DNA of 63,979 bases, counting the filler, from Malassezia furfur (taxonomy: Eukaryota): assembly GCA_052055015.1 (NCBI GenBank). It is 17 parts of 17 records of this genome, joined end to end, with 100 filler letters (N's around TTAATTAATTAA, not from the genome) between each part and the next. Parts side by side here need not be neighbours in the genome. Positions count along the whole stretch, not along the records: positions 1 to 3,776 come from JBQJIT010000730.1; positions 3,877 to 7,623 come from JBQJIT010000731.1; positions 7,724 to 11,468 come from JBQJIT010000732.1; positions 11,569 to 15,311 come from JBQJIT010000733.1; positions 15,412 to 19,151 come from JBQJIT010000734.1; positions 19,252 to 22,986 come from JBQJIT010000735.1; positions 23,087 to 26,820 come from JBQJIT010000736.1; positions 26,921 to 30,626 come from JBQJIT010000737.1; 9 more parts are not named here. One strand, given 5' to 3'. The notes beneath the pieces are model-generated. The model saw only the letters and a list, made by a program, of their open reading frames with translations, did no database searches and was not told where the DNA came from. Each line of letters starts with the position of its first letter. Positions within the stretch are counted from its first letter, which is position 1. The translations under genes were made by a program, and so were the position numbers. Below, piece after piece: positions 1-63,979 of this stretch.

Positions 1-1855
1 GCGGCCCGACGGTGCGCCGGCCGCGGAGCCGCGCGACGACTTGCGCAACTTGAGGAGACCGAGTGCGTCGCGCAGCGGCCCGTCATCGGTGTTCTGTGCA
101 TCCTGCCGCCAGCCGCGCGAGAAGCTGCGCAGGCCGACACTCGGCGTGCGCTGCCCCGGCGAGGTGGGGCCCGACGTGGGCGTAAACGGCTCGCGGCAGT
201 ACTCGTCGACGATCATGGTTGGCGATGCGACGCCGTACGTCTCGTCGTCCGACGCGTCTTTCCAGATCGGCGGCAAATCGACGTCCATGCCGTGCGTGTC
301 GGCGGCGCTCTGCTCGCCGAGGTCGACGTCGTCCTCGTCGTCAAAGGTGATGTCGCTCCCAATGATGTGGTGTCCAGTGCGCTTCTCCGACGTGCGGCGG
401 CGCGTGCTTGTCGAGCGCTGGCTCCCGCTCGTAGAGCGTTTCTTGTGCTCGAGGATGGGCGCGAGTGCGTGCCCGATGTTGATGGCACCCGCGAGCGGCA
501 GTGCCGAGTCGTGCTGGAGGTCGTGGTGGTGGACACGGTGCGAGGACGCGTGCGCGTCGTGGTGGCCGTGCGGCTCGTCGGCACCCGGCGCAAACTTGAT
601 GGTCGTATGTGTCGCGGGCGAGCCGGGCGCGCTGTTCGTCGGCGTGTACGACACGGGCCGGTCGTAGAGCTGGTAGCGCTGCACTTCGCCGCCCATGCCG
701 TCCTCGTCGTCGTCGCAGCGGCGCTGCGAGCGGGCGCGGCGCGTGCTGTTGGCGCGCAGGATGCTGCCGACGATGCCCATGCCGCCTCGGACGGTGTCCA
801 TGCCCGGGTCCTCGATGTGTGTGATCTCTTCGCTCTTTTCCGGCTCGTGCGGCAGTTGGGTCATGCGCACCAGGATGGACGACTTGCGGTCGTCGCCCGG
901 CTGCTCCTTGAGTTCCTGCGGGTCCATCTTGCTGAGCTGGAGCAGGACGATGCCCGAGCAGATCACAAAGAAGCCGAACACGATGGTGACGATCGTTGCG
1001 GCGCTCGCGCGCATGCCCTGCGACAGGATGATGGAGGTGATGATGGTCGCGGCGGTGAACATCACGTAGTACGTCGGCGTGACCGCGGCGGTGTTGAACA
1101 GCTCGAGCGCCTTGTTGAGGTAGTTGATCTCGACGAGGAGCGTGACGATGATGAAGCCGAGGAGGAAGTAGGTGAACCAGTAGGTAAACTGGTTCCTCCC
1201 GCGGATCGACAGGATGATGGCTGCGCCGAGCCCGCTCGTTACGCTTACGCTCAGTCCGCCGATCACGGAGCACACGGTGATGTAGACGAGCATCGTCTTC
1301 TTGCCATACCGCGGCGCGACAAGGAAGATGAGCACGAGGGCCGCCACCACACAGATGCCGAGCCAGGTGAGGAAGCCCGGCGCGATGAACAGCTTCTCGT
1401 ACTCGCGGATGTTGCCGCTGGTTTTTTGCTCGGGCGCATTCACCGCGATGATCACCGAGCCGACGATGCACAGGAAGCAGCCGACCTTGCCAAAGAGCGT
1501 CAGGCACTCTTTCAGGAAGATGGACGACAGGACGGCGCACACGACGACCGACAGTGCGCCCATTGGCGTGACAAGCACCGCATCGGCGAATGCGTACGCA
1601 ACAAAGTTGAGCACCTCACCGAGCACCATGATGATCATCCCTGTCCACCACATCGGGCTCTTGAGGTACGCATGCGACTCGCCCGCGGTCGTCTCGTACT
1701 TGCGCTGCGCCGACAGCAGTCCCTTTTTTTTGAACACGAACGACGAGCCGATGAACACGCCACTCAGCACAGCGAGCCCCTGTGTGAGCAATGCAACGTA
1801 CCAGTCCCACATACTTGAACCCTGGGGGGTTGCTCTCTGGATCCGTCAACGACAT
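1..1855 (-). CDS. NIPA/DUF803 magnesium transporter family protein; 3' end runs off the window; 22-nt intron 1780-1801
   Basis: Splicing GTACGT..CTCAC.ACAG joins KYVGL to GLAVLSGVFIGSSFVFKKKGLL. Downstream WWTGMIIMVLGEVLNFVAYAFADAVLVTPMGALSVV and ALELFNTAAVTPTYYV are NIPA hallmarks. The ORF track misses it because there is no stop in the window. Confidence 0.9.
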
Positions 1856-1938
1856 GCCCCCCAGTCCAGTGTGTTGTGGTGGGGGTGCACGCGCCGCGCC
1901 CTAGCCACGTGCGCGAGGGGACACTTGCCCCCGGCCCC

Positions 1939-3776
1939 ATGGACGAGCCGCCGCGGCCCCCCGCGGCGCCGCACGCGGATGCAGGCATCATTGAACAGCG
2001 CGTGGCGCGCACCATGGACGACGGGCAGTCCTTGCAGGACATAACGCCGTGGCAGGCGCCGCCGTCCGACGCGCCCGCGCCGCCCGACACGCCTGGGCGG
2101 GACGCTGGCGGAAGTGGGAGCAAGTCCCGCTCGCTCAACCCGCTGCACCTCTTTCGCGCGCCGTCACTGCGGCGCAGCAAGGCCCAGGACACCCCGGCAG
2201 AGATGGAAGGGAGCGAGCGCAAGTGGCGCCCCTTTCGCGCGTCGTCGTCCACGCGCGACGTCGACACACGCAGCATCGACAGCGAGCGCGGCGCCGGCGC
2301 GCGGCGCCTGCGCGCCTGGCTGCACCCCCGCGGCACCACCAACGACGACGAGCTGCTTGCGACGTCGCCCAAGAGCTTGTCGCGCATCGCGTCGCGCGAG
2401 TCCTCCGTCGGCGACGTCGACGCGCCTGGCATGGCGCAGACGCCGACCCCGGCGCTCGGCGTCGCGCTCGACACCAACTTTGACCGGCTTGATGACATCG
2501 TGGACATGCGGCGCGCACGCGGGGTGCCGTACGAGCAGAGCATCTCGCCGACGCAGACCGACGTGTCGCCGACACGCACCGGCTCGCCGCTCGCACGGAC
2601 GGCGTCGCCGCTGCTCGTGACGCAATCGCCGCGCCTGCGCTCGCGCTGGTCGACCGACTCGGATACGCCGCGCGTGGTGTATCCACAGCGCTCATCGAGC
2701 AGTCAACGCAACTCGAGCGCGGGCCCCGACGTGTGGGAGTGGCGCGTGCGCAATGCGCTGGGCGCCGACGCCGGCCGCCGCGACAGCGCCGGGTCGTACA
2801 TGACGATCGACTCGCTGCGCTCCGATGCGAGCCACGCGCGCGCCGACGAGATGCGTCCGGCGCCCGCGATTCCCGATGCCGTGCCGCGCCTGCGTGCGGA
2901 TGCGAGCCGCTCGACGTGGGCGGCGCCGGACTCGTGGGCGGTGCGGCCGCAGGACGAGGCCCAGAGCTCGCTGCGCAACGTCGGCGGCGAGTACGTCGAC
3001 GGCGACGACGACGCGAATGGCACATTGCCGGGGCGGCACGCGATCGAGCGCAGCGATACCGACTCGTCGATACCGACGTCGATCATCGTGTACGACCACC
3101 ACCGCAGCGAGACGCCGTCGTCGCCCGGCAGCCAAACGGCCAGCGGCGCGGCATGGGCCGACGAGCCGCACCGCCGCTCGTGGCTCTTCCCCGGGCGGCG
3201 CAGCAGCAAGCTCGATGCGCTGTTTGCCCCCGAGCTCGCCACCTCGTCGCACACCCGCACGCGGAGCGCCGACGAGACGACCTGGTCGTCGATTGAGGAG
3301 CCCGCGACGCGTCCGCATGCGCACACCCACACACACACCCATGCACACGCACATGCACACGCACACGCGCACGCGCACCCCACACCGTCGCCGCCGCGGT
3401 ACCTGCACCCGTCGATGCACACGCACGCGCACCATGCGGCGCGGCGCATCCACCGCCACGTTGTGCATTCGCCGCACCTGCCCTTCCGCCGGTTTGTGCG
3501 GCGCGCCGAGGCGCCGGTGCGCAGCGAGCCGGTGCACGACGCGGACGTCGATGCGCCGGCGCCGCGCGCGACGGCATGGCACTTTTCGACGCGCCGGCGC
3601 GGCGAGACGGCGGCGATCGAGGCGGATGCGACGCCCGTGCCGATGCACCACCCCGAGCCGCTCGCCGAGACGGCGGTGCCGCTGCACGCGGGCCACGCAA
3701 ACTGCTTTCTGCGCATCTATTTGCAGGACGACACGTTCCTGCGCATCTCGTGTGCGCTCGAGACGACCGTCGCCGA
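1939..3776 (+). CDS. CYR1: Adenylate cyclase, N-terminal part (G-alpha-binding motif and start of Ras-association domain), truncated at contig end
   Basis: LDTNFDRLDDIVD, WAAPDSWAV and LRIYLQDDTFLRISCALETTV match conserved N-terminal motifs of fungal adenylate cyclases. Confidence 0.75.
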
Positions 3777-3876
3777 NNNNNNNNNNNNNNNNNNNNNNNN
3801 NNNNNNNNNNNNNNNNNNNNTTAATTAATTAANNNNNNNNNNNNNNNNNNNNNNNNNNNNNNNNNNNNNNNNNNNN
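3777..3876. other. Artificial contig spacer (N44-TTAATTAATTAA-N44, stops in all six frames); first of 16
   Basis: Identical 100-nt spacers also start at 7624, 11469, 15312, 19152, 22987, 26821, 30627, 34432, 38227, 42018, 45804, 49583, 53361, 57124 and 60883. Lengths of the complete contigs fall monotonically from 3747 to 3659 nt. Confidence 0.99.
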
Positions 3877-4566
3877 TCTGCACAATGCTCGGCTTGATCC
3901 GCGCGAGCTGGAAGAGCGTCTGGAAAATCTGGGGGTCGTACACGTCTGGTGGGGGGTCAGCATCGCACCTCGAGCGCCAGAATACGTACTGCTCAGGCCA
4001 ATTTGGCGCACCAGACCCGTGTCTACGAGTGCCTCGAGCACACGCCATGCCTCAAGCGTGCTCTGCAGCGTGGGCATCGGCGAGTGCAGCAGGTAGCTGT
4101 CAATGTACACGGCATGCGCCGGCGGCGGCGACGGCACCTTGTCGCGGTTCCCACGCGCAGTCACGGCGTACTTGGCCACGAGCTCGGTCACCGACGGGAT
4201 CGTCTGCTCGGGGTGCAAGTTGGCGAGACTCGCCTGGAACGACGCACACACCTGCTCGGCGACCGGTGCCTGCACGTCGTACGGCACATAGCCGGTCGTG
4301 TCCTGCCCAGACACCGGCGTAAACTTGGTCTGGAGCCACACGTCGCCGCGCACGAGCCCAAGCTGCGCACACGCCTGGTACACGCCCTTGCCGACCAGGT
4401 CTTCGCGGTAGTGCTTGCGCTGCGCCGCGGTGTCGACGCCGCGGAAGCCCTGGAGGAAGGCGGTAAAGACAAGATCCGCGGTGCGTGTATCCTTCCACGC
4501 AGTCCCATACAGGATCGGTGGCATGCTTTTCAACGCCATGCTCCGCTCCGCCGCCTTGCCCGACAT
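3877..4566 (-). CDS. Aldo/keto reductase, 3' truncated; 44-nt intron 3946-3989
   Basis: Motifs ILYGTAWK, GFRGVDTAAQRKHYRE, LQTKFT and IDSYLLHSP; LVRQIGLSN(VYD) is restored by splicing. Confidence 0.85.
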
Positions 4567-4646: not shown

Positions 4647-7571
4647 CTACGTCTTGGTGAACCAGCGCGTGGTCTGCCGCCTGAGCCAATATACAAGGAA
4701 CCCGACGAAGCGGAAGGCGGCCATCTGCGGTGAGCAAGCGGGGGCACGTACCCCAAACGTGGACCAGAGGATCACTTTGAAATAGATCTGCTGGTTGTGC
4801 TGGCCCTGCGTAGCCTCGTCGTCCAGTTTTTCTCTCGGATGATAGTCGTACAGATTCATAATCACGGCCACCAGGGCCGCGTTCGTCAGCAGCCACAGCG
4901 TCACGAGACGCGTACGGAAGGTGCGGTTGCTGTCGTCGATGGTCGGGCGGTCGACGGTGCGTTCGTAATGGTACGGCTTGATCGCCCGGTCCACCACGCC
5001 GCGGAAGCGCTCGTCCAGGTCCTCTTGGTCGTACGCAAGCTCCTCGACAACGGCGTTCGCGTTGGCGTTGGTCGATTTGCGCTTCGCGAGGTCGACCGTG
5101 GGCAACGCGTCCGCCTTGTCGGAGCCCTTGGTGCCCCAGCTGACGTCGTGCAGGTTGCAAAAGGCGTACACGTTAATCACGTTGACAAACGACGGCGCGA
5201 CCCAAAAGTACTGCACCGAGCTCGTGAGCATGTGCCACGGGTCCGCATACAGCAGCGACGACACCAGATAGATGCCAAACATGGCCGCAAGCGATGCAAT
5301 CAGCACCGCGGTCGTGTTGGAAAAGATGATCTCCGCGTAGCTCTTGTCCGCCGTATGCATGCTCAGCAGCGAGCGCACCGTGAGCCAGAGCGATATGCAC
5401 AGCACGTACGAGCCCAGCACGCCAAACACGACAATCGACAGGACGTACGCGACGCGCTCCGCCTTGGGCCGGTTGCCGAGCGCAAGCACAAACTGGAGCG
5501 CGAGCATGAAGCCGTACACCCACATGAGCACCAGGTTGATCCAGTGGAACGCGATCAGCCACGTGTCGCCGTACTCGCGCAGCAGCACGTTGGGCAGGTA
5601 CTGGATGATGATGGCAAACGTGAGCCACAGATTGCCGAGCGCGAACCAGGAAAAGATGAGCTGACACAGGTTGTAGAGCGCCTGAAGGTGGAAGCCCAGC
5701 ATGCGCAGCACCCCGTGCCGGCTGCGGTAGATGCGGTAAAAGTGCACGAGCGAGTAGATCGACGCGGCAAAGCTGCCGTTGAGCCACCGCCGCCGCTGCG
5801 AGATAAGCTCGGCGGTTTTCTCGGGCACGTCCGTCTCGGCCTTGCTCGGCTTGACGTACGACAGCACCCAGCGGTCGCCGGCCTTGGCCACAAGCTCAAA
5901 GCACAGGATTCGGTCCTCGGCGAGGAACATGTTTTTGCGGAAGATGTTCATCTGGTTCATGCCCTTGCGGCCCAGCCGCTCGGCCATGGTGTGGTCGCCG
6001 TGGAAGTACTGCTGCAGCGGGCGCCCACAGATCGCCCGGTAGCGGTACGCACTAAACGCGCCGGGCAGCACACTGACGTACCCAAACGTCGACTCGAGCG
6101 GCTTGTCGAGGATGTTGCTGATCTTGTACTCGAAGTTCTGCGCAGCAACCAGCGGATTGAGCAGCTTGACGCCATGGTCGGTCATGACGTGGATCTCGCC
6201 GCACGCGCCGCCCAGGTGCGGGTTGTTGTAGAACGCTTCCCACAGATAGTACAGCGAGCGGTGCCCGGGCTTGGTCCCGACGTCGATCAGCACCACCACC
6301 TCGGGCTGGAGCATGGCGCCGATCGCATTGAAGACCCACCGGTGGCTGTTGATCTTTTTCGAGTTCTTCTGTTTCAGGCAAAAGATGGTCTGCACCGGCA
6401 CCAGGTTCTGGTCGCTCCCCTCCACGGGCTGCACGAGCTTCGGCGTGGAGTCGACCGCGACCTGCGTTGTGTACTCAAACAGGTGCGCGACGGTCTCCTG
6501 GTCGTCGACCTTGCGCTTCATGATCCCGTCCTGGTACACGCCCATCGTCGCGAGCACATCGAGCGTCTCCTTGTCGCACGGATCGATCCCGTCGTACACG
6601 AGGACCACGACGATCCGCTGCCACGGCGGCTGGCCCTCTTCGGCCGTGTGCCGCCAGTACTTGGACCACTTGTTCTTGCAGATCTCGCGGATGTTTTGCA
6701 TCACGCCGTACAGCGTGCGCGTAAGAAGCTTGCGGTCCTCGTTGTAGTAGGTGAGCGTAATGAGCAGCTCGGTCGCGCGCCCGTAGTCGGACGAGGCGCG
6801 CAGGCCCCACCCGTTGTCGCGCGTAAACTCGTCGGGGTCGCACGTCACCGCCGAGTAGCGCATATGCGTAAACTCCTTCGGCTGCCCCTCTGCACGGTAC
6901 TTGGCCTCTACCGCATTGGCCACGGGCGACGGCACGGGGTAGTCGACGATCCAGTTGCTCCCGTGCAGCTCGACCTGGCGCATGTGCCCGTGCGACGGCG
7001 GCTGCTGCCGCGCTGCCCAGCCGCGCTGGCTCATCTGGTCGTCGGCCTGCAAGTCGATCATCGACGCACTCGGGCGGTGCACACCAAAGTCGGCGTGCAC
7101 GTCGGGGAAGCTCAGTGAGCTCGCGCTGTCAAACTTGCCGTGCAGCGGCACTTGCAGCTCGTCGTCGCTCCGCATGTGCGACAGCGACGCGAGGGGGTCG
7201 GTCGTGTCGTAGGCCTGCACGTACTGCGGCTCGTGCAGCTCGCTGGCGGTGTGCCCCGCGTCGGACGGCGCTTCGAGATACTGGTCGACCAGCGCATGGT
7301 GCGCGTCCGTCGTTGCGCTCGTGTTGGTGAAAATACGCGGCTGGCCAGGCACCATGTCCTGAGGGTACAGCGGCTGCGGCGCCGCTGCAGCGCCGCCCCA
7401 CCCCGCCTGGTAGCGTGCCTGCTGCGCGGCCGAGGTTGGAGGGTATGCGGGAGCCACAGACACCTGTGGGGGTGCCACAGATACCTGTGGGGGTGCCTCG
7501 GGCACCTCGTCGTCCGTATGGGGCACACTCGCATACCGGCGCGCTGCCGGAAGCGCTCGCGGGCCTCGCAT
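4647..7571 (-). CDS. Chitin synthase, division 1 (probably class III); probable 27-nt in-frame intron 4725-4751
   Basis: EFTHMRYSAVTCDPD, QNFEYKISNILDKPLES, VLPGAFSAYRY, LAEDRIL and QRRRW motifs plus C-terminal TM helices. DYPVPS and DGIDPCDK suggest class III. Start codon uncertain. Confidence 0.95.
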   Translation of the reverse strand: MRGPRALPAARRYASVPHTDDEVPEAPPQVSVAPPQVSVAPAYPPTSAAQQARYQAGWGGAAAAPQPLYPQDMVPGQPRIFTNTSATTDAHHALVDQYLEAPSDAGHTASELHEPQYVQAYDTTDPLASLSHMRSDDELQVPLHGKFDSASSLSFPDVHADFGVHRPSASMIDLQADDQMSQRGWAARQQPPSHGHMRQVELHGSNWIVDYPVPSPVANAVEAKYRAEGQPKEFTHMRYSAVTCDPDEFTRDNGWGLRASSDYGRATELLITLTYYNEDRKLLTRTLYGVMQNIREICKNKWSKYWRHTAEEGQPPWQRIVVVLVYDGIDPCDKETLDVLATMGVYQDGIMKRKVDDQETVAHLFEYTTQVAVDSTPKLVQPVEGSDQNLVPVQTIFCLKQKNSKKINSHRWVFNAIGAMLQPEVVVLIDVGTKPGHRSLYYLWEAFYNNPHLGGACGEIHVMTDHGVKLLNPLVAAQNFEYKISNILDKPLESTFGYVSVLPGAFSAYRYRAICGRPLQQYFHGDHTMAERLGRKGMNQMNIFRKNMFLAEDRILCFELVAKAGDRWVLSYVKPSKAETDVPEKTAELISQRRRWLNGSFAASIYSLVHFYRIYRSRHGVLRMLGFHLQALYNLCQLIFSWFALGNLWLTFAIIIQYLPNVLLREYGDTWLIAFHWINLVLMWVYGFMLALQFVLALGNRPKAERVAYVLSIVVFGVLGSYVLCISLWLTVRSLLSMHTADKSYAEIIFSNTTAVLIASLAAMFGIYLVSSLLYADPWHMLTSSVQYFWVAPSFVNVINVYAFCNLHDVSWGTKGSDKADALPTVDLAKRKSTNANANAVVEELAYDQEDLDERFRGVVDRAIKPYHYERTVDRPTIDDSNRTFRTRLVTLWLLTNAALVAVIMNLYDYHPREKLDDEATQGQHNQQIYFKVILWSTFGVRAPACSPQMAAFRFVGFLVYWLRRQTTRWFTKT

Positions 7572-11603: not shown

Positions 11604-12728
11604 ATGGTGTGGACGCTGGGCGCGCGCGCGCTGGCGACGCAGGCGGCGCCGCGGGTGCGGCCCGCGCGCACGTCGCAGCGCGTTCGTGCGCTCGTGGCAC
11701 TGTCGTGTGCAGGTGCCGGCGCGGCGTACTGGCTGCGTCGCAACGACGCACCACCCTTACCGCAGCCGACGCGGTATGCCGAGCTGACGGTGGAAGAAAG
11801 CGTGCGTCTGCCGCGTCAAGCCGCAGACGCGTTCGACCCAAACGAGGCACCTGTGCATCGCCTGCTGCGAGTACGTGCAGGTGGAGAGCTCGGTGTGGAT
11901 AGCACTGGTTTGGTCGACGATGTCGCGCGGCGCTTGGCCATCTATGCATATTACATCAAGGAGCCGTCGCTACAGGTCGAGCGTGCCTACACCCCCGTCG
12001 AGATGCTCGCGCGGGCGGATCCCAGCACAGTATCGTTTGTTGTGAAGCGGTACGCAGATGGCGAGATGTCGCGTTACCTGCACCGTCTGCGCCCATCGTC
12101 GCCCCTGTCGCTCCGGGGTCCAGTGCCGACGTGGGAGCTGGGCACAGCGCCGGTTCCTGCGGAAATTGTTCTTGTACGTGACGCACTGACGTAGCTCGTT
12201 GCCGGTACGGGTGTAAGCACCGCGGTGCAACTCCTGTCGAACGTGCATGCAGGTGCCGCCGCGTCCGTTCCCCGCCTCACTGTCCTGTACGCCGCCCAGT
12301 CGCTCGACACGCTCGAGATGGTGCCCGAGCTCGCGGCGCTCCAGCGCGCACACCCCAATGTGCGTGTCGGCCTATGGGTCGAGCGCCTTGCCGCGCAACA
12401 TGGCACGGTCGCAGCGCTCGACGGCCCGCCTGTGCCTGCCGAAGTGCAGGCGGAGCGCCGCGCGTGGTGGTGGCCAGCGTCGCCGACGCACTTCCGGCTG
12501 CACCTCGCTAGCGGCGATGTACTGCCGCTCGCGCTGGGCCGCATCAATGCGGCCGATCTGCGTGCGTGGAGTGCGCCAGCCGCCGACCGACTGGTGCTTG
12601 TGTGTGGACCCGACGGGTTTGTGCGGACTATGGCAGGCGACAAGGGCCGCGATCTGGTGTCGCAAGGCCCACTGCGGGGGTTGCTCGCCGAGCTGGGGTA
12701 TCGGCCCGAACAGGTAGTCAAGCTTTAG
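11604..12728 (+). CDS. CYC2: Mitochondrial FAD/NAD(P)-binding oxidoreductase (cytochrome b5 reductase/Cyc2-like); 21-nt intron 12174-12194
   Basis: ERAYTP, VKRYADGEMSRYLH, LRGP, spliced EIVL-LVAGTGV, LVCGPDGF and QGPLRGLLAELGY. Start could lie further upstream. Confidence 0.75.
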
Positions 12729-19639: not shown

Positions 19640-20279
19640 CTAATCCTCGTCCGAATCGGCCATCACCATGGCTGTTGTCAGTCGCATAACCTACCGTCGT
19701 CGTCGTCTTCTTCCTCGTTGTTGTTGGTCTGCTTCGCATCCGACTCGGTGCGTTGCGTCTTAGCCGGCCGTGCCTCCTCCGCAACGGGCGCCGCACCGGT
19801 CGGCGCATCTTCGCGCGCGCGCTTCTTGTCCTGCCCCTCGGCGTCCGCCTGCGCGTGCGAGTAGGTGACCTTGGTCGTTGGCTGCAACGTGCCCTCGCTG
19901 ATCCGGCTCAGCCGGCCGGGGTTGAGCAGCGCCTCTTCGCCGTGTTCCTGCACGAGCGATGCGTAGGATTTCTTGCGCGCATACTCGATCACCTGGGTCA
20001 GTCACCGAACACGCACAAGAGGCTTATCGTAGAACTCGAACCCATCGAGGCCGCGCAACGCCGATGTTGCGCTCTGCATGTCGCGAAACACGACGAATGC
20101 CTGTCCACGCATGCCTGGCGCGCGCGTCGCGACGACGTCCAGCACTTTGCCATAGCTGCCAAACAAATCGTAGAGTTGGGCGCGGAGTTCTGCGTAAGCG
20201 GTGTGTACGTACCCTCCTTCTTCACCTTGGTGTTGATGTTCTTGACATACACCGACGCGCTCGGTGTTCCGCTCGGCAT
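19640..20279 (-). CDS. U2 snRNP B''/U1A-family RRM protein; introns 20190-20212 (23 nt), 19993-20016 (24 nt), 19672-19694 (23 nt)
   Basis: Spliced product VYVKNINTKVKKEELRAQLYDLFGSYGKVLDVVA..MRGQAFVVF..FYDKPLVIEYARKKS is the U1A/U2B'' signature. The third intron is less certain. Confidence 0.9.
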
Positions 20280-27570: not shown

Positions 27571-28937
27571 CTAATCAAAGGGAATTCGTCGCAATGGTTT
27601 GGCCGGACCGCGCTTGGCCTTCTCGGCGGCGGCAAAGGCGCTAGGGATCGGGATGCCACAGCAGTCGCCCCACCCGGCCGCCTGGCCCTCGCCATGACCA
27701 TGACCATGGCCGTGTCCACATGCAGGGCCATGCGCGTGGCCATTCGCGCCCGCCACATCCGCTTCGGTGGGAGTAGAAGCGGCGGCGTCGAGCTCGTGGG
27801 TATGCGTGTGGTCCGCCTCGTCCTCTGGCACGCCGAAGTCGAGCAGGGTACCGAAGAAAATGTGCTGGGCGATGGGTAGCTTAAGCAGCACCTCGCTGCG
27901 GTACATCTTCGCCATGCCCTCGTTGACTTTGGACCATGTCTTGACACTCGAGATGTCGTCGAGCATGGGCGAGTGCCACCGTAGCGACTCGGTTTTGACA
28001 GCGTTGATGGACTGGATGCAGGAAAAGTACATGTACTTGGGCGCGTTGTCGTCCACCAACTCTTCGTCGTGGATGCTGCTGGGGCGCAAGAAGCGGTGGT
28101 TGTACAGCTGCGACGAGCCAAAGAGGAAAGGCAAAAAGTGGTAGTCGTCCAAACCCCACACACCGTGGCTGCCCGCGGGCTCGAGCCAGTATTCAGCCTC
28201 AATAACGCGCATCAGCTCAATGTACTGCCAGAAGATGCGCAGCACTAGCGCCGGCGCATCGCGTGGCAGCTCCAGGATGCCAAGCTTGACGAGGAGCAGC
28301 AGCCAGCACAAAAAGTTGAGTTCCATGCCGCTGCCATAGTCGATGCGGCCCGCGTTGCCCCAGCTCTCCTGCAAGTAGATGGCGAGCTCGTCGCGCGCGC
28401 GACGGTGCTGTGTTGCGCCAGGCTCCGTTTCGCGCAGGCTGGGGAAGAGCTGCAGGAGGCCGTCGATGGCATGCTGCAGCTTGGTGTAGAAGGTACGGAA
28501 CTCGGGGTTGCCGAAGCGTGATGTGGATGCCGCTGTGGTGCTCCGTGGTGTGTCTTTCACGATCTGGGCTACGCGCGCAAGGATCTCGTGGATGGTTTTT
28601 ACCGCCTGCGTGAGTAGGCGCGACGTACCTCGCTTTCTTCCACATCATCCTTCAAAGAGCGGTCCCGCGCGCCGTCATTCAGTGCGCGGAGCATACCCAA
28701 AATCTCGGCAAACGCGGGAGACGCCTGGAAGCGGTCCATGTCTTCGGGCGCCACGATGCGCTTGTGCGGAATGCGTGGCGCCCACTGAGGGTGCATGACG
28801 ACCACCGGGGGCGCAGCACCCTTGAACGGGTCCTTGGGCCCAGGAGCAGTCGGTTGGGGCGCCGGAGGCGCGGGTATCTCTTCGGTGCGCTTGCTGCGTA
28901 GCTTGTTGGCCAGTGCCACACGCGCGTCTTCTTGCAT
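27571..28937 (-). CDS. RRD2: PP2A phosphatase activator (PTPA) Rrd2/Ypa2; 23-nt intron 28606-28628
   Basis: SRFGNPEFR, SWGNAGRIDYGSGMELNF, YWLEPAGSHGVWGLDDYHFLPFLFGS, LRWHSPMLDDIS and C-terminal IPFD. Confidence 0.92.
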
Positions 28938-29009: not shown

Positions 29010-30551
29010 ATGGCGCCCGACGCACTCACCGAGGTGTGTGACGAGGTGGTCGCGCGCTACCTTGCGCACCAAGGACACACGCACGTCCTCGAGGCATTTC
29101 AACAGGCCGTAAAACGCAATGATCTGTCCACTGAGCAGTTTAAGGATGTTGCGCGCGACTTGCGTACGCTCGTCGAGCAGAGCCAGTCGATAGCGTCGGC
29201 ACAGGCGCTCTCGCGTCTGCAGCTCGAAGAGACGGACGCAGACGACCTCGATGGTATTGTGGCCAATGCACAGGCTGCAGACCAAGCGGAGTACACGCTC
29301 GACAAGACCATCGAGCATCTGCACCACTCGAATCTGCTCTCGATTCGAGCCGTGCAGGTGCCCGAGCGCAGCGGCTCAGCGTGGACGCTGCGCGAGGGTG
29401 TCGCGACGACGGGCGCCGACAAGCTGATCGTGTTCAGCGATCCGCACTCGGGCGAGGTCCTTGCGATCCTCGACAAGCCGAGTCAGCCGACGCCGAGCGG
29501 CGCCGTCGGCCACGACTCGGCGGTGCTGGATGTGTCCCAGAACCCAAAGCATCCGCGGTACGTGGCATCGGCGGGTATGGATGGCCGCGTGGTGGTGTGG
29601 GACTTGGTAGGTCGCGCAACTTGACTCACACAGCACATCGCACAACCTGTGCAGACGCTCAAGGAACACGCGCGCTTTGTCGTGCGCGTCGCCCACAGCC
29701 CATGCGGCACGTTTCTCGCCTCGGCGGGGTACGATAAGAAGGTGGTTGTGTACCGTGTGACGCGCCAGAGCGACGAGCTGATGTACGCCAAGGTGCACGA
29801 GATTGTGCTTGGGGCGAACCCCGAGGCACTGGTGTTTGTGGTTGGGCCGAGTGCACCGCCTGCGCCCGGGCACGAGTTGGGTGTGCCGCGCCGCGCATGG
29901 CTCGTGTTCACCGAGCGCGGCCACGTTGACCTAACGTACGTGGCACTGCCCGCGCCGGATCTCGAGGAAGGCGCGGCACCCGACTTTACGACTGTCAAGT
30001 ACAACACGAATCCGGACCCCGACGACCACCATGCGGGCTACTCGCTGCTGGACCTGTCGCTGCACCCGTCCGGGCACTACATCTGTGCGCAGACGGGCGA
30101 CCATGCGGCGCTGCAGCGTGAGTCGCCGACGGGCCAGCCGGTATCGATTGGGGGAACCACGCTCGGCGATACGCTCTCGCGTCTCCTGGTGCTGCCTCTT
30201 TTTTCGTCGTTCCGGCGGCTCACGCTATGGACCGAGGCGCCCTCATCGACGTTCTCGAACCCGCGGCACGCGTGGCGTACCGAGGGCGATGCAGCGTGGG
30301 TCACCGGCGAGGACGGCGTGCTGCGCCTCGTTGGGGTCGACGGCGAGCTCAAGGCGCGTGTGCCGGCGCATGGGCAGCTGCGGCCGATCGACTCGACGTC
30401 GCAGCGCGCGCGCGATGCGGCCGCGGCTGCGGCGTGGGTGCGTGGCGGAAACACGGTGATTAAAGGCGTAGCGGTCTTGCCCGACGGCGGCGTGGCAAGC
30501 TGTGGCTTTGACCGCACGGTGCGCGTGCTACGGCCTAGCGCGTCTTCATAG
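29010..30551 (+). CDS. LisH-like plus WD40-repeat protein; 27-nt intron 29607-29633
   Basis: VVARYLAHQGHTHVLEAF, GH..SAGMDGRVVVWD, LASAGYDKKV and SCGFDRTVRV; splicing joins ORFs 29010 and 29649 in frame. Confidence 0.8.
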
Positions 30552-36862: not shown

Positions 36863-37392
36863 ATGACGCCGACGGACGCGCTCAAGCCAGCGATCGCGAA
36901 ATTCCAAGAGGCGCAGTCACGTATGTAGGAGGCACGCGAGGGCGGAGGCTGACGCCGCGTGCACAGAGTTTGAGACCGTCGTCGATTTGCAGCAGCAGCT
37001 GCTCTCGCAGCTCTCGGAGAACCAGCAGGTGCAGCAGGTAGGTTGCGCGTCGTGAACGCGGTGCTGACCGCCGTGCAGGAGTTTGCGCGCTCCGGCCCCG
37101 ATACGCGCGTGTACAAGCGTGCGGGACCTGTTCTGCTCCCGCAAGACTTCCAGGAGGCGAGCGACAATGTGACGAAGCGCATCGAGTTCATCCAGACGGA
37201 GCTGTACGTCTTGCTACCCCGCATGCGCGGGGTGCAGTGCTGACCGTGTGTGCAGGCAGCGCGTCGAGAAGCAGATCGCGACGCTCAGTGCGAACCGCGA
37301 CGCGATCAAGGAAGAGGTAGGTGCGCGCCCCCCGGGTGCTGACGCAGATTCTCGCGGCGCAGCAGCGTGCCCCGGCGTCGTCGCGGGGCTAA
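36863..37392 (+). CDS. YKE2: Prefoldin subunit 6; introns 36921-36966, 37038-37078, 37204-37255, 37317-37347
   Basis: Spliced protein QQLLSQLSENQQVQQEF..VYKRAGPVLLPQDFQEASDNVTKRIEFIQTEL; all four introns are GT..CTGAC..CAG. Confidence 0.9.
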
Positions 37393-41486: not shown

Positions 41487-42017
41487 CTACAGAACACGAC
41501 GGTCGGTCATCACGCGCATGATGCACCCCGTGCCGGCGACCTGCGTGAGCTTCTCGTGCCAGAGCAGCAGCACGGCGCAGTTGATGCCCTCGGCCGCGCC
41601 CGCGCGCGTGCCGCCGAGCGCAAGGCCCTTGTACAGGTACTTCATCAGCGTCTCGCGCTGCGCGAGGTTGAGCGTGCGCAGTGCCGCGGGGATGTCGGTC
41701 GAGCGCGTGGCGTTCAGCGTCTCGAGCAGGAGCGCGAACGTGACACGCTTCGCCTCCTCGGCGTGGTGCCCGCTCGGCGCGTCGTCGAGGATCGCGGCGA
41801 GGGCGCCGGCGGTGTCGTTGCTGCCGGGTGAGCATCGAGGGGGGCGGTGCGGGGGGCCATACGTACCTCGCGAGGCGCGTGCGCACGCCGCTCTGCTTCT
41901 GCTGTGCAATCTGGAGGAGCTCTGCGGCCGAGTGCGGGTCCTCAATCGCGAGGTCCGCGGCGGTCAGCGGCTCCTCGTCCCACTGGTCCACGTCCAGCGC
42001 GCGAAAGTCGCTGCTCA
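41487..42017 (-). CDS. ARC15: Arp2/3 complex subunit 5 (ARPC5); 46-nt intron 41821-41866; extreme 5' end missing
   Basis: FRALDVDQWDEE, LMKYLYKGL, LLLWHEKL and GTGCIMRVMTDRR. Confidence 0.92.
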
Positions 42018-42117: not shown

Positions 42118-43070
42118 CTCCCGCTCCGCGCGTACAGCGTGAGCGAGGCGAGCGCGTCGCACCCGCCCACGAGCTCCGCGACGCGCGCAAAGAACGGCGC
42201 GACGTCCTCGGCGCGCCCGGGGTAGGTCAGCGTCAGCGCACGCACGCCGCGCGTGTACGGCGCGAGCTGCGCGAGCGCCTCGGGCGGCATCCCGACGCCC
42301 TCGAGCGCAAGCGTGTCGAGCGCGCCGGCCTGCGCAAGGCGCACGACCCCCGGGCCGTGCACGTTCTTGCATCCTACGAGCGTGAGGCGCCGCAGCCGCG
42401 CCGAGGCGGCGAGCGTCTCGAGCAGCGCGTCGGTAATCAGCGCGGAATTCTGCATCCGTCAGTAGGCACACACGCACCATGCACAGCACACTGAGCGCCT
42501 CGAGCGGCGCGGCGCGCTCCACGATCGCCGCGAGGTGCTGCACCAAACTCCGGTCCGGCAGCACGACGTGCAGCTCACGCACGCCCGGCGGGAGGCGCGC
42601 GGCGAGCAGATCGGGCGACCACAGCCGGCTGTTCCCGGTGATCTCGAGCTTGCGCAGCTCGTGCAGGTGCGCAAACATGGTATCGAGCAGGCGGTCGTTC
42701 AGACTGCCGTCGCGCGTCCAGCACAGCTCGCGCAGGTGCACGGCGGCATGCAGCGTGCGCACGATCTGCTCCTCGAGCTGCTCGAGCTGCTCGGCAGGCA
42801 GCCCAAACGGGTACACGCGGAGCTCTGGCGTGAGTGTGCGCACGACGTACCCAGGATCCGCACCATCCGCGCGAGGTGCGGCGCGTCGGCGAGCGTGCGG
42901 AACACGCGGATCACGCGCAGGTGGTCGCGCAGCCACAGCCGCTCGTACAGCCGCGGCGTCGCCCACGCGCCCCACACGCGCGACACACGGCAGCACGCCG
43001 CGAGGTCGCCGACGCGCCACGCCAGCGCATCCAGCACGCCAGGCACCAGCTCGCACGGCCACTCGCGCAT
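42118..43070 (-). CDS. F-box/LRR-like protein, 3' truncated; introns 42825-42850 (26 nt) and 42450-42477 (28 nt)
   Basis: F-box WPCELVPGVL..LAACCRVSRVW..ATPRLY followed by LRR-like LRRLTLVGC; splicing joins three ORF-track frames. Confidence 0.75.
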
Positions 43071-46067: not shown

Positions 46068-46104
<37 letters not shown>

Positions 46105-48282: not shown

Positions 48283-49420
48283 GGTATCCTGGTGCTCTCC
48301 TCCCAGCTGGAAGCGGCGCTTTTGCCGTGCGTGTGTGCGGCCTACGCGTCCGGACCGTGAAGATGGCGCGCTCCGGATCGCGACATGCCGCGATTTCCGG
48401 GTATAGGGCGAAAGGGTGTGGTTGGCCTTGAGCAGCTCGGCGAGATGGCCCGCAATGTCCATGTTCTCGAAGCGCGGCTCTGCGCGCGAGCGCAGCGGCG
48501 TGCCGATCGGCATCTGGGGCGCACGCACGCGGCTCGTCGCATGGAAGGTGCGCGCCTTGCCCGAGGCCGTCGGCGGCGCAAACAAATCCGCGAGACCATG
48601 CGGACTGTTTTCCGACGCAAGCCGCGCGAGGCCGCTGGGGTGCGACGGCGCGCGCGGCAACGCGTCATCAATCGACAGCATCGACAGCGGCTCCTCTACG
48701 CCGTCGTTCCACCCGGGCGCAGGCGCGGGCGTGCGCGCTTCGGGCGCGCGCGCTTGGCCCTTGTCCTCCTTGGGTGGAGGCACATTCGTGCGCAGCCAGT
48801 CCTGGCTGAGCCGGTGGATGATCGACGGGAGGTCTTCGCGGAACATTTCGCGCAGCTGCGCCTCGATCTCTTCCTGTAGATACTTTTGGATGACGCCCAC
48901 GCTGTCAAACGTCGACGACACCCGCACGCTCTCGAGTGGATCGTTCTTGAATACGAGCGTGACGCCCTTGCTGCGCGATACGGCGAGCACGACAATGGCA
49001 CGCAGGCGCACGTCGGAGAGGCGCACGCGCATCGGTACGGTCAGCGGACTCGCGGCAAACAGCATGCCGCGCTGCGCGGCCGGCGACGAAAACAGACCCA
49101 TCCCGGGCTCGTTGGGTCGTGCAAGCGGATTCGCCTGCACCTGCGTGGACAGCTCGAGGTACGCGTCGCCGGCGTACATCAGCTTGAAAATGCCGCGGAA
49201 TCGCTCGCGGCTCAGGTCGCCAATTTCGAGAATCTCGAGCTCGGGCGGCTGCGTGAGCGGCCGAGATACGTACCACCGTGCCCATGTTGAGCTCCTTTAC
49301 CTGGATGTCGCCGGCGATGACTTTGGGTTTGGGGCCGCGGTTCAGTGCGACGTTCAATGTGGATATGGCATTCTCGTAGAAGTGGCCCGAGAACGTCGGC
49401 CACGCAAAGTTGAACGACAT
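48277..49420 (-). CDS. MDM34: ERMES subunit Mdm34; 25-nt intron 49249-49273
   Basis: MSFNFAW, spliced LNMGTV-PPELEILEIGDL, LVFKNDPLESVRVSSTFDS and LPSIIHRLS. Confidence 0.93.
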
Positions 49421-52651: not shown

Positions 52652-53256
52652 CTCACTCGGGCCTGCAGGCGCTGGAGGGTCAGTGGGCCGTACGTACACG
52701 CCATTCTCGCCCACGCCCGTGGTCGTCGTCGTTCGCGCCGAAAACGTCGTGCCGAGCACGCCGAATTCCACGTGGGATGCGCTGCTCGCTATCCGCCGGC
52801 GCGCGTTCGCTACCTGCCTCTCGGCCGCAGCCGTGCCCAATCCGATCTGGAGTGGATCGGGCGCGGCGGGCGGCGCCCCACCGCACGGGGTGGGCGCGTG
52901 CGCGGCGCCGCAAGGACCGACGGCGCGGACGAGGATGGGATGGATGCGGCGGTGTTTTCCGCGGCGAGGCACTGCGCCGTGGTGCAGACCGCCTGCAGGG
53001 TCTATGTAGGTAGGTAGGGAGAGTGGGAAGGTAGGCAGGCCTGTGCACGAGGAGTGCCTATGGGTCTCGGTGTGTTCTTTTTTTCTTGCGTGTGCCAGCG
53101 GGCGCCAGCGGCCGTGGCTCGTGCCCGACACGGCGGTGCCAACGCGAGTGGGGCCGGGGGGACGCCGCGTACGAGGCGGTGAGCGGTGCGCCGGTGCGGT
53201 GTCTGCGTCGCCTCCACACGCTCCCGATGCCCAGATCGGCCGAGCGACCCCCCACC

Positions 53257-53360
53257 ATGGTAGGTCGTGGAGACTGACGGCAGTCGAATACCTTGCGGCC
53301 GTACCTGGAGTGCGTGCGTGCGTCGCTCACGGCGGCGCTCACGCTGCAAGACTTCTCGTC
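53257..53360 (+). CDS. ARC19: Arp2/3 complex subunit 4 (ARPC4), 5' end; first coding exon is only ATG, followed by a 24-nt intron 53260-53283
   Basis: Spliced [26 protein letters not shown] is the conserved ARPC4 N-terminus. Confidence 0.88.
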
Positions 53361-53523: not shown

Positions 53524-55171
53524 ATGACGGCGAACGACGTGCTGAGTGATGCCATCGCCGCACGCAAGCTCACCGAGGAGCCGCTGCTCGCGCCGCCCGC
53601 GGATGCGCCCCCCGCGGACGCCGCGCCGGCGCCCGAGCCGGCGCCCAAGGAGGTCGAGCACAACTTGCCCCGTGCCATCGAGCAGTTCCAGCAGCCGGTA
53701 CGTGCGCCCACCGCTTACTCCAGTGGCTTTCAGGCGAGGCACCAACACTCCGCCTGTGCGCGGTGCGCATCCAGGGACTGCGCAACGTGCGCCCGTCGTT
53801 CCTCGCGGGCCTGTGCCGCCCGTACGTCGACGCAAGCAGCGGCGTCACACCGTTCAGCGCGTGGTGGTACGGCGAGCGCGCGTCGCACGCGCTCCCGGGC
53901 GAGCCCACGACGTTCAAGTCGCTGCTCGACATCACGACCGCGCTCGGCGGCGACCTCGCGCGCCTCGACCTGGTGCGCGACATTGCCGCGAGCCTCGAGC
54001 CGTCGCAGATGTCGAGCGGCCATCCGGAAGAGGACGTGGACCTCGTGCTGCGCGTGCAGCCCGCCAAGCGCTTCTTCCTCAAAACCAACACGAGCGTCGG
54101 GCAAAGCGAGGGCACCGCGTCGATCCAGGGCAAGGTGCGCAACGTGTTTGGCGGCGCCGAAACGCTCGAGGGCAGTGCCACGCTCGGTACCCGCACACGG
54201 CACGCGTACAACGCCGTGTTTTCCACGCCCGTGCTCGCGTCGCCCGACGTGTGGGCGAATGTGTCGGCGCTCGCGCAGCACCGCGACTTGACCGGCTACC
54301 TGAGTGCACACGAGGGACTGCATACACTGCGTGCCGCTTGCATGGTACGTGCGCCCGACTGACCGCAGATGTTGGGCCAAGACGGCATGCGCAACGAGCT
54401 CGCCTACGAGGCGAGCCACCGCCACTTTCACCACCTGCTGCCGCGGGCCTCGGTCGCGTACGTCGGCACTCGCTGACTCCAGGATAAGGCGTCTTGCGAA
54501 GCCCTCGTTCAAGTCTGCCCTGACGTACTCGGCGGAGCTCGATACCCGCGACGACCCTTTTATGACGACCACCGGGAGCTACTGGCGCGGCATGCTGGAG
54601 TATGCGGGCCTCGGCGGCGACACGTCGTTTGTCAAGTCCGAAGGCTATGCTACGGTCGCGCGCGCCTTTGGCCAAGGCTGGGCCTGGTCGGTCGGCGCGC
54701 GTGCGGGGTGGATGCACACGCTCGACGGGCGGCCCGCGTGCCTGAGTGACCGCTTCATGCTCGGTGGGCCGACGGACGTGCGCATGTTCCGCCTCAACTC
54801 GCTCGGGCCCCGCGAGGCGTACGACTCGCTCGGCGGCGACGCCTACTGGGCTGCGGGCGCCTCGCTCCTCGCCCCCATCCCGGCGCGCGCCGACTGGCCG
54901 CTCAAGCTGCACGCGTTCGCGAACGCCGGCCAGCTGACGCAGGCACAGAGCTGTACGTTCCTGCGCGCGCCGCGCACTGACCACAGACCTACCGGGCACG
55001 CCCGCGTCCTATACCGAGCTCTTGCAGCCGTCTGCATCGATGGGCCTCGGCCTGCTCTTCCAGCAGGGCCCGGTGCGCCTCGAGCTCAACTTCGGCCTGC
55101 CCGTGCTCGCGCGCCGCTCCGACGGCACGCGCAAGGGCCTCCAGTTTGGCATCGGCCTCGAGTTCCTGTAG
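53524..55171 (+). CDS. SAM50: Sam50/Tob55 (Omp85 family); introns 53698-53723, 54345-54368, 54458-54482, 54953-54986
   Basis: RNVFGGAETL, DRFMLGGPTDVRMF, LGGDAYW, RLELNFGLP and terminal GLQFGIGLEFL after splicing. Confidence 0.92.
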
Positions 55172-60882: not shown

Positions 60883-60982
60883 NNNNNNNNNNNNNNNNNN
60901 NNNNNNNNNNNNNNNNNNNNNNNNNNTTAATTAATTAANNNNNNNNNNNNNNNNNNNNNNNNNNNNNNNNNNNNNNNNNNNN

Positions 60983-62252: not shown

Positions 62253-62328
62253 CTGCGTAGTAAAAACATAATTGTCTCTTACGAGACACTCTTCTCTGAT
62301 CATGATTGTCATCCTTACTGCAGGGACC

Positions 62329-62359
<31 letters not shown>

Positions 62360-62745
62360 TTCGTATGCTACCCGAAGGTGCACAAGCCTATGTGCTGAGC
62401 GCGGGTCGCTCGTTGGGATTTTGGGCGCGAATCACCGACCGAGCAAATTTGGCCGTTGCGTGTGTCGGCTGACTAACTTGACCCGCGGCGTGCGATTGGC
62501 AGGACGGGCCGGCCGCGGGGGTCGGCACGCTTACCAAGCTGCAGGGGCACGCGGCGCGAGGGGCGGACAGGTGGGCGCGCGCCGACGGCGCCTTTTTTCC
62601 GCGTCGAGCAAACTTCCAGGTCGCCCTGCGCCAGCGAGCTTTGGCACCGCGTGCATTGACGGTTTCTACGTTGTGCCGAATCTTTGGTCTGCCCCACGCG
62701 GGGGTTCGTGAGTGAAAGCCAAGGCGGTACGCGAACACGGGCACC

Positions 62746-63979
62746 ATGCCCGACCAAGACCTCTTACAGTCGTTCGACTCCCTTCACGTCGGGCGCGCGA
62801 CGTCGCCGGCCGCGCCCCACGCCGAGGGCCGCGCAAAGGACCTGTCCTTTGCGCCCAACAGCGCCCCACTCGACGCCCCGGTCTCCTTTTCTCCCTTCCA
62901 CCAGCCGCGCACGCTGCCGACGGCGCCCGAGGGCGGTGCGCCGAACCTGTACGCGTCGCGCTTCCAGCACCTGTTCGCGAACGGCGTGGGCCCCGTCGAC
63001 AGTGGCGCACACGCCGACGCAGAGGCATTTGCACAGACGGGCCTCGCGCCACCCGCCACGTCCGAGCTGGGCGTGAATGCGGGCTTTGACGCGGCGCCTG
63101 GCGCGGCGCCCGGCGGGCGCGCCGGGGTGCCGTTCTTCTCACACACGTGGGCGGCGCCGAACGCGGCGGCGCCCGGCGTGTCGTTTGGCGCGCCCGGCTC
63201 GGACCGCAGCGGCGCACTGCCTGCGTCGAGTGCACTGCCTGCGCCACTGCAGCTCGGATCGGGCCCCATCCGCTTTGGGTCGCAGCTGCCGAGTGCGCCG
63301 GCGCCTAGCAGCGGCGAGAGCGACATCATCCCAACAGCGATCGTGATCAAAAACATCCCCTTTAACATCAAGCGCGAGCAGCTTTTGCATGTCATTGTAC
63401 GTCGGGTTGACTAACGCAGCGTGATCTGGGCATTCCTGTGCCATACGCCTTCAACTACCACTTTGACCAGGGCATCTTCCGCGGCCTGGCGTTTGCCAAC
63501 TTCCACTCGCCCGCCGAGGCGAGCGAGGTGGTCTCTGCGCTCAACGGGCTCGACGTCAGCGGGCGCAAGCTGCGGGTCGAGTACAAAAAGGTGCTGCAGG
63601 CCGGCGAGAAGGAGCGCATCGAGAAGGAAAAGGCGATCAAGCGCATGCAGATGCCGCACGGCGGCGACAAGGAGCGCAAGAAGGACAAGGCACTCGCGCC
63701 CGAGCTCGCGCACCTCCCGCCGCTCAGCGTGTCGCCTGTGCCGCGGCGCATGGCGTCGCCCAACTCGGTGCTGCTCAACGGCCTGTCGCCGCCGTCGAGC
63801 ACCGCGTCTGTGTCGCCCAACGCACACAAGGAGGGCAAGGGCGGCGCCGACATGGGCGCGAGCGGCGCGCACGTCCCGTCCTTCCCGCGTCCGCACGAGG
63901 CGCTGAACGACGCGCCGCTCGACCTGAACGACGCCGAGACGCTCGAGATCTACTCGCGCGTGCTCCTCTTCCGGGACGA
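62746..63979 (+). CDS. PIN4: RRM(-R3H) RNA-binding protein Pin4/Cip2, 3' end runs off the window; 23-nt intron 63397-63419
   Basis: IPTAIVIKNIPF, PYAFNYHFDQGIFRGLAFANF, GRKLRVEYKKVL and DLNDAETLEIYSR. Confidence 0.88.

Follow-up and report, generated by a model that had tools for sequence, protein, structure and literature searches.

We asked whether a window of 63,979 bases from the yeast Malassezia furfur (GenBank assembly GCA_052055015.1), by which we mean the whole stretch of DNA analysed here, carries a population of spliceosomal introns of only 21-28 nucleotides (nt), as a first-pass annotation had proposed, and whether such introns would call for an unusual spliceosome. The window is made up of 17 contigs of 2,997-3,776 bases each, which are sorted by descending size and joined by spacers of the form N44-TTAATTAATTAA-N44 (3777-3876, 7624-7723, ... 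60883-60982). Contigs that adjoin here do not adjoin in the genome, and the introns are thus drawn from scattered genes and not from one locus. The overall GC content is 66%. As judged from the sequence, the elements are very probably ordinary U2-type (GT-AG) spliceosomal introns of M. furfur or a very close relative, with a short length that is normal for the genus.

All 16 proposed introns were found at their positions, 7 on the plus strand and 9 on the minus strand (Table 1; individual introns are referred to below by their first position in the window). Each of them also conforms to the anatomy that had been described, namely a GTACGT, GTAGGT or GTGCGT donor, followed by CTNAC as the branch motif and, 1-5 nt on, by YAG as the acceptor, with no pyrimidine tract. 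The acceptor is CAG in 15 introns and TAG in one. The branch motif reads CTGAC, CTCAC, CTTAC or CTAAC and places the putative branch A at intron position 16-22, which is 5 nt from the 3' end in eight introns, 6 nt in seven, and 9 nt in one. Since the gap between CTNAC and YAG is just 1, 2 or 5 nt, there is no space for a pyrimidine tract, and on the other side the donor hexamer is separated from the branch motif by 6-12 unconstrained bases. Together with seven additional introns, the window holds 23 supported introns of 21-52 nt (median 26), 16 of which are 28 nt or shorter. Every one of the 23 begins with GT[AG][CGT]GT and contains CTNAC, with the A 5-14 nt before the 3' end. The signals are dominated by few variants, with GTACGT in 15/23, CTGAC or CTCAC in 20/23, and CAG in 22/23 (TAG in 1/23). 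The GC content of the introns is 64%, near the genome average.

The number of such elements clearly exceeded chance. Searching both strands with the strict pattern GT[AG][ACG]GT..CTNAC..YAG gave 21 matches of up to 45 nt; in 50 simulations under a second-order Markov model the figure was 2.9 +/- 1.9 (maximum 9), and it was 2 when the sequence was reversed. At a length of up to 28 nt there were 17 matches, compared to 1.2 +/- 1.2 (maximum 5) in 200 simulations, or about 14 times the chance level. The 17th of these matches, at 52672 on the minus strand, is not among the 16 introns; its removal breaks the CHD1 frame, and the CHD1 Pfam domains are continuous in one open reading frame. It is probably the approximately one match expected by chance, or else an unproductive splice site. 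A relaxed scan that allowed any GT..AG interval up to 400 nt returned hundreds of in-frame combinations and was informative only once filtered; no convincing intron longer than 52 nt emerged from it in the window.

Evidence that these elements are removed came from reading frames and from protein junctions. An open-frame test by open reading frame length alone is too ambiguous at 66% GC, and its place was taken by a codon-usage test trained on 8,961 codons from Pfam-supported exons. In this test, the proposed splice joined the best-scoring upstream and downstream frames in 13 of the 16 introns, with about one third expected by chance. In each of the three failures (1780, 4725 and 19672), the coding sequence on one side is very short or scores weakly, and at 1780 the test is uninformative because exon 1 is tiny (18 codons). 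Retention would shift the frame in 10/16 introns and give an in-frame stop in 5/16, leaving 15/16 that cannot be read through. The expectation that removal would mostly restore conserved protein was likewise borne out, in that 11/16 junctions are residue-exact when compared with homologues, solved structures or Pfam profiles, and the other five are joined by frame. The residue-exact junctions comprise three in Sam50, three in a U1A/U2B''-type protein, and one each in the genes for a cytochrome-b5-reductase-like protein (12174), chitin synthase (4725), a NIPA-type transporter (1780), PTPA (28606) and ARPC4 (53260).

Sam50 provided the most complete comparison. With its four introns out, the spliced product is the same as the NCBI M. 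furfur protein P0001 from model residue 36 onward, and it is ungapped at every junction versus eight orthologues. Four such introns have thus already been removed in P0001. The U1A/U2B''-type product, with its three introns out, agrees with its counterparts in M. yamatoensis and M. vespertilionis over the RRM and has the conserved acidic C-terminus. Its first junction, MPSGTPSASVYVKNINTKVKKE|ELRAQLYD, agrees with NCBI M. yamatoensis P0112 and is frame-consistent; its second, DKPL|VIEY, is ungapped versus P0112 and P0113; and removal of its third intron gives back the C-terminus AMxMxDSDE[DE], as in NCBI M. vespertilionis P0113. Two side observations concern these proteins. P0113 is without 9 residues beside the first U1A intron. 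At the Sam50 N-terminus (53524-53640, plus strand), P0001 reads MPSPHASSPRS... where the frame used here reads MTANDVLSDAIAARKLT..., and the latter agrees with M. yamatoensis and Malassezia sp. (MSANDVLSDAIAARKLT / MNANDMLSS); the mismatch points to either a between-strain indel or a start or frame error in the P0001 annotation.

The remaining residue-exact junctions were located by domain boundaries and structures. At 12174, the spliced model is ungapped versus a more distant homologue, P0109, with Pfam FAD_binding_6 in exon 1 and NAD_binding_1 from the second residue of exon 2; since this intron ends in an in-frame TAG, the NAD-binding half would be made only after splicing. When chitin synthase is aligned to the solved Candida enzyme (7stl_A), the 27 nt at 4725 correspond to a gap of 9 residues, and the last helix is ungapped once these are removed. 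The NIPA junction reads ..NPPGFKYVGL|GLAVLSG, with [IV]G[ILVM] directly before the same point in 35/36 top homologues, and the Pfam NIPA match begins at the first residue of exon 2. In PTPA, the junction divides the Pfam profile between positions 47 and 48, with exon 1 running up to the former and exon 2 taking up at the latter, in a consistent frame. Exon 2 of ARPC4 (SNTLRPYL...) lines up with S. pombe ARPC4 (3dwl_F) over residues 2-26; since it starts at homologue residue 2, the lone ATG before the donor is the start codon, encoding residue 1.

The other five introns (29607, 42450, 42825, 49249 and 63397) are frame-consistent and have positive coding scores on both flanks. At 29607, a WD40 repeat stops at the end of exon 1 and the next one starts 3 residues into exon 2. 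In the leucine-rich-repeat (LRR) gene, the coding scores are 17.7/10.9 at 42450 and 21.0/22.3 at 42825, and removal of both introns leaves a 303-residue open frame in which Pfam gave weak hints only (E 0.03-0.3). The Mdm34-type gene (coding scores 10.6/19.6 at 49249, spliced frame of 382 residues) owes the name of its exon 2 to an Atlas feature search (score 0.96); neither exon had a solved homologue or a Pfam match, and matches to thymidylate synthase were dismissed as noise (E ~0.1). In the RNA-binding protein gene (coding scores 18.3/18.5 at 63397), exon 2 covers RRM_1 positions 36-70, starting 17 residues in. This leaves about 18 RRM_1 positions for the end of exon 1 (IVIKNIP), so that the junction fits within one residue, and exon 1 alone gave no Pfam match.

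Could the real introns be longer, using more distant donors or acceptors, with the short GT..AG intervals being only parts of them? Frame-keeping alternative pairs do exist nearby, at 29595-29633 (39 nt), 49240-49273 (34 nt) and 54458-54488 (31 nt). However, 11 junctions are ungapped exactly at the short boundaries, and longer forms would delete conserved residues there; the 39-nt form starting at 29595, for example, removes the WD dipeptide of a WD40 repeat. Moreover, the alternatives are either without a branch motif near the acceptor or without a consensus donor. We therefore find longer introns scarcely credible at these sites.

Some points do weigh against our reading of the 16 elements as ordinary introns. 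The presence of a perfect motif within an exon (52672) means that the motif alone is insufficient, and both splicing and the branch A are read here from sequence and motif, not from RNA. The element at 4725 is stop-free and keeps the frame, so that a retained isoform is possible, and at 29607, 42450, 42825, 49249 and 63397 the junctions draw their support from frame and domain logic only.

Public protein sequences offered an additional view of the same sites. It had been suggested that gene finders can miss these introns, and database proteins indeed carry insertions at tiny-intron sites. Insertions of 7-9 residues (VR..LTQ or GTCKILT) are present in P0107, P0108, P0110, P0111, P0112 and P0002, three of which are NCBI annotations. 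At the site of the 21-nt intron (12174), the insertion is a 7-residue VRxxLTQ, with VRGPLTQ and VRAALTQ found across NCBI M. brasiliensis P0108 and P0107. At the second U1A intron, VRAHRLTQ and VRAALTQ occur in P0110 and P0111, and at the third, GTCKILT occurs in NCBI M. yamatoensis P0112, with read-through insertions also in P0110 and P0111. Finally, the Sam50 protein P0002, an unspliced gene call from a Malassezia-like source, has a 9-residue insertion at intron 2, an 8-residue insertion at intron 3, and one more at intron 4. Since V-R...L-T-Q is the phase-0 translation of GTNCGN...CTNACNCAG, these insertions read as unremoved introns and not as real peptides, and from the sequences we infer that they represent unremoved introns with a length divisible by three (3n) at conserved positions. 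A related side observation is that the Mdm34-type protein (48280-49248, minus strand) starts in the ESM Atlas at residue 24 of exon 2, read as Met; here, too, the gene call missed the 49-codon exon 1 before the 25-nt intron.

The same insertions could be taken to mean that some elements are never, or not always, removed, in which case they would be chance matches or in-frame coding insertions. This applies above all to the 27-nt element in chitin synthase, which leaves the frame open, and it is in line with the approximately 1.2 chance matches expected at up to 28 nt, with the one decoy found in CHD1, and with the occurrence of such insertions in database proteins of related species. Against this, the sole expected chance match is already accounted for by the motif at 52672-52697, the 9 residues in chitin synthase are absent from the solved Candida enzyme and their removal leaves an ungapped transmembrane helix, read-through gives a stop or a frameshift in 15/16 elements, and the database insertions follow V-R...L-T-Q exactly as translated introns would. 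We consider it very improbable that non-removal explains any of the elements.

Read-through of 3n introns also bears on the stops within them. Among the 23 supported introns, six have a 3n length (4725, 12174, 19993, 29607, 53260 and 54345), so that no depletion of this class is detectable. An in-frame stop is present in 5/6 of them (all but 4725), versus 6/30 frames in ten short introns of other lengths; the corresponding binomial P is 0.0016, for a small sample in which the frames are not independent. Where the TGA of the branch motif is out of frame, the stop is provided by the TAG acceptor at 12174, and by an additional TGAC further upstream at 19993 and 29607. This excess would resemble the translational policing of tiny introns in Paramecium, where 3n introns are reportedly policed by in-frame stops (a finding ascribed to Jaillon et al. 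in 2008), and we treat the resemblance as a lead and not as a result.

How could introns this short be recognized? Each intron holds its three signals and little else: a nearly invariant donor hexamer (GTACGT > GTAGGT > GTGCGT), 6-12 bases, CTNAC, 1-2 bases (once 5), and CAG. Going by general splicing knowledge, the donor would be read by U1 and then by U6, and CTNAC by SF1/U2, after which the first AG past the branch, 5-6 nt on, would be used by virtue of its proximity. With the AG that close to the branch A, neither a pyrimidine tract nor long-range recognition of the 3' site should be needed. The strict, almost yeast-like consensus may make up for the specificity that is provided elsewhere by length and auxiliary elements.

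A standard spliceosome that simply tolerates such introns competes here with the view that the early splicing machinery of Malassezia has been modified or reduced so as to recognize donor and branch within 16-22 nt, either because U2AF/Mud2-type recognition of the 3' site was lost or changed, or because the bridging of U1 and U2 was altered. The geometry is in favour of the latter view, as only 6-12 nt separate donor and branch, only 5-6 nt separate the branch A from the 3' end, and no space is left for a pyrimidine tract. The signals are also far less degenerate than in most intron-rich fungi, given the GTACGT, CTGAC/CTCAC and CAG frequencies above, and non-Malassezia metagenome contigs show intron candidates, as yet unvalidated, of mostly 40-60 nt. 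The only two spliceosome parts in the window, however, give no hint of reduction. The window contains a U6 small nuclear RNA (snRNA) gene that matches the full Rfam model RF00026 with 77.8 bits (gathering score 44), has an intact ACAGAGA box and AGC triad, and is followed about 20 nt downstream by a T5 run (terminator). It also encodes a full-length U1A/U2B''-type protein, which has a full RRM with no reduction and the gene of which itself bears three tiny introns. An snRNA search of the window yielded no U1 gene. In addition, other lineages with introns of 15-27 nt, such as Stentor and myxozoans, reportedly keep a functional canonical spliceosome (PMC13644364; here and below, statements with PMC numbers refer to excerpts of the sources concerned). 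On balance, we consider a modified machinery unlikely and favour ordinary U2-type splicing of introns that happen to be very short.

The introns are also not unusual for the genus. The first-pass annotation took Malassezia introns to be short but lengths such as 21-28 nt to be typical of ciliates, nucleomorphs and microsporidia; means and medians of about 30 base pairs (bp) are, however, reported for this genus (PMC5389616, PMC9241646). In the curated annotation of M. sympodialis, introns number 5,350 and have a mean length of 30 bp, 99% of them being supported by RNA-seq and with peptide support in addition, where an earlier homology-based annotation had 3,462 introns with a mean of 65 bp (PMC5389616). 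In M. restricta, the average/median intron length is 37.2/30.0 bp (PMC9241646), and this species was annotated with min_intron_len = 15 (PMC6473144); more generally, Malassezia annotators lowered the minimum intron length to 10-20 (PMC5389616; PMC9241646; PMC6473144), and a review mentions the "very short introns" of Malassezia genes (PMC7426719). The short introns of the genus were thus already on record (PMC5389616, PMC9241646, PMC6473144, PMC7426719). The 21-28-nt class is the bulk of the known Malassezia length distribution and not an outlier; the finding is correct and, because RNA-seq and proteomics had documented such introns in the genus, already known. M. sympodialis and M. restricta share the short introns, and the excerpts on them report lengths, where the present analysis also gives the spacing of donor, branch and acceptor. 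The M. furfur data differ in coming from a window with 66% GC, and the 23 introns sampled there have a median length of 26 nt, the shortest having 21 nt. Among the matches listed in our literature search, with subscription journals outside its scope, no paper dealt with donor-branch-acceptor spacing or with the splicing mechanism in Malassezia.

Comparison with more distant systems showed both likenesses and differences. With ciliates, the introns described here share the length class, the canonical spliceosome and the lack of room for a pyrimidine tract, and here 5/6 of the 3n introns contain a stop. Ciliate introns are AT-rich, unlike the introns in the window with 64% GC and a strict CTNAC 5-6 nt from the 3' end, and the host is in this case a culturable, transformable yeast. 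In Giardia and Trichomonas, branch and 3' splice-site motifs are fused, with the branch at a fixed and very short distance from the AG, but these organisms possess just a few introns, and their overall length is not generally so short. The likeness is that branch and 3' site form a single composite signal, in the window with a distance of 5-6 nt; the difference is that the whole intron in the window measures about 24 nt. In terms of length, P. tetraurelia introns are about 25 nt on average (PMC8997360; PMC5014332) and Stentor introns 15-16 nt (PMC13644364). Microsporidian, dicyemid and myxozoan introns are likewise shorter than 30 nt and reside in reduced or compact genomes (PMC13644364). Microsporidia, however, have very few introns, which are reportedly poorly spliced (median ~25%; PMC13644364), unlike Malassezia with its thousands of introns and 99% RNA-seq support in M. 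sympodialis (PMC5389616).

With typical basidiomycetes, the introns have in common GT-AG ends, a GTNNGT donor, a CTNAC-like branch and intron definition, the basidiomycete introns being 2-3 times longer. A 2021 fungal survey cites the C. neoformans mean of 63 bp as "relatively short" and treats M. sympodialis as intron-poor (PMC8476143). Among the 11 metagenome loci returned (L001-L011), all chitin synthases that are 51-77% identical to the one in the window, with 45-59% GC and none from Malassezia, the candidates for donor, branch and acceptor spanned mostly 40-60 nt, although these are unvalidated. Among the relatives compared, introns of the very short class may thus be peculiar to Malassezia.

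Taken further, these data allow the tentative idea that Malassezia is an overlooked and genetically tractable fungal counterpart of Paramecium, an idea that joins three elements and that we regard as possible rather than probable. The first would be a composite signal of about 20 nt, comprising the donor hexamer, 6-12 nt, CTNAC, 1-2 nt and CAG. The second would be an altered early assembly in which no U2AF-type step reads a pyrimidine tract and U1 and U2 almost touch, unlike the yeast/human model. The third would be the policing of 3n intron retention by selected in-frame stops. If this is true, public Malassezia proteomes hold spurious 7-9-residue VR..LTQ insertions and truncated genes wherever tiny introns were missed, and surveys that call M. 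sympodialis "intron-poor" would rest on such annotations. In practical terms, introns of 21-28 nt are shorter than many aligners and gene finders accept by default, and the annotation of Malassezia genomes or skin metagenomes calls for a minimum intron length of about 15. The question of how a spliceosome assembles on introns that barely exceed their three signals is usually studied in ciliates, and Malassezia would offer a tractable yeast with sharper signals for it. The tiny introns of Malassezia appear to be little noticed in the wider literature on intron length, going by excerpts of two sources (PMC13644364, PMC8476143); a 2026 paper names ciliates, microsporidia and dicyemids as exceptions with introns below 30 bp, and Malassezia is not in the list as excerpted (PMC13644364).

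Table 1. Predicted introns and related features in the window, with the evidence for each
Feature	Position	Strand	Evidence
22-nt intron, NIPA-type Mg transporter gene, after 18-codon exon 1	1780..1801	-	homologues, Pfam
27-nt intron (3n, stop-free), near 3' end of class I-III chitin synthase gene	4725..4751	-	7stl_A alignment
21-nt intron (shortest; in-frame TAG), cytochrome-b5-reductase-like gene, between FAD- and NAD-binding domains	12174..12194	+	homologues, Pfam
23-nt intron, third of U1A/U2B''-type RRM protein gene	19672..19694	-	homologues
24-nt intron (in-frame TGA), second of U1A/U2B'' gene	19993..20016	-	homologues, frame test
23-nt intron, first of U1A/U2B'' gene	20190..20212	-	homologue, frame test
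23-nt intron, PTPA (phosphotyrosyl phosphatase activator) gene	28606..28628	-	Pfam positions, frame test
27-nt intron (in-frame TGA), WD-repeat protein gene, between two WD40 repeats	29607..29633	+	frame test, domain logic
28-nt intron, LRR protein gene	42450..42477	-	frame test
26-nt intron, same LRR gene as 42450..42477	42825..42850	-	frame test
25-nt intron, Mdm34-type gene, after codon 49	49249..49273	-	frame test
24-nt intron (in-frame TGA), ARPC4 (Arp2/3 p20) gene, directly after ATG	53260..53283	+	3dwl_F alignment
26-nt intron, first of Sam50	53698..53723	+	P0001 and 8 orthologues
24-nt intron (in-frame TGA), second of Sam50	54345..54368	+	P0001 and 8 orthologues
25-nt intron, third of Sam50	54458..54482	+	P0001 and 8 orthologues
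23-nt intron, inside RRM of RNA-binding protein gene	63397..63419	+	frame test, RRM_1 positions
34-nt intron, fourth of Sam50, not listed in the first-pass annotation	54953..54986	+	motif scan; removal needed to match P0001 and orthologues
46-nt intron, prefoldin-subunit-like gene	36921..36966	+	motif scans
41-nt intron, prefoldin-subunit-like gene	37038..37078	+	motif scans
52-nt intron, prefoldin-subunit-like gene	37204..37255	+	motif scans
31-nt intron, prefoldin-subunit-like gene	37317..37347	+	motif scans
46-nt intron, ARPC5 (p16-Arc) gene	41821..41866	-	scan, spliced frame, Pfam P16-Arc match
44-nt intron, aldo-keto-reductase-like gene	3946..3989	-	motif scan, frame-consistent, spliced frame
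26-nt intron-like motif (GTACGT..CTGAC..CAG), inside open CHD1 frame	52672..52697	-	strict motif match
U6 snRNA gene, intronless, between WD40 gene and RRM gene	62277..62381	-	Rfam RF00026

Two of the genes with longer introns were named by reading of the sequence, with no search. The gene with four introns between 36921 and 37347, which we take to be prefoldin-subunit-like, forms a single open frame once all four are removed, and the gene around 3946-3989 on the minus strand is presumably aldo-keto-reductase-like. Otherwise, Pfam showed typical fungal housekeeping genes in the window, including those for chitin synthase, COG4, PTPA, the small subunit of ribonucleotide reductase, trehalose-phosphate synthase, CHD1-type SNF2, IQGAP, Sam50, ARPC5, a MYST acetyltransferase and the NIPA transporter. 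With respect to the source, the largest Sam50 exon is 99% identical to the NCBI protein M. furfur CBS14141_000662; the next named matches of Sam50 are from M. yamatoensis, Malassezia sp., M. pachydermatis and M. cuniculi, and then from other Ustilaginomycotina. The best matches of the cytochrome-b5-reductase-like and U1A/U2B''-type genes are from M. brasiliensis, M. yamatoensis and M. vespertilionis.

Two contigs had features that are separate from the introns. The contig at 7724-11468 forms one large palindrome around a centre near 9596, its whole length being 98% identical to its reverse complement. Over the outer 1.2 kilobases the arms do not differ at all; the 38 mismatch pairs all fall within the inner 650 bases, many of them at intervals that are multiples of 3. 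The arrangement resembles a head-to-head joining of two coding-sequence copies or alleles that have diverged, and it would reflect either a genuine inverted duplication or a chimera created during assembly. The other contig is spanned as a whole by a 1246-residue open frame (15414-19151, plus strand) with no Pfam match, the product of which is highly repetitive, rich in Ala, Glu, Leu and His, and looks coiled-coil-like (EH..AL..).

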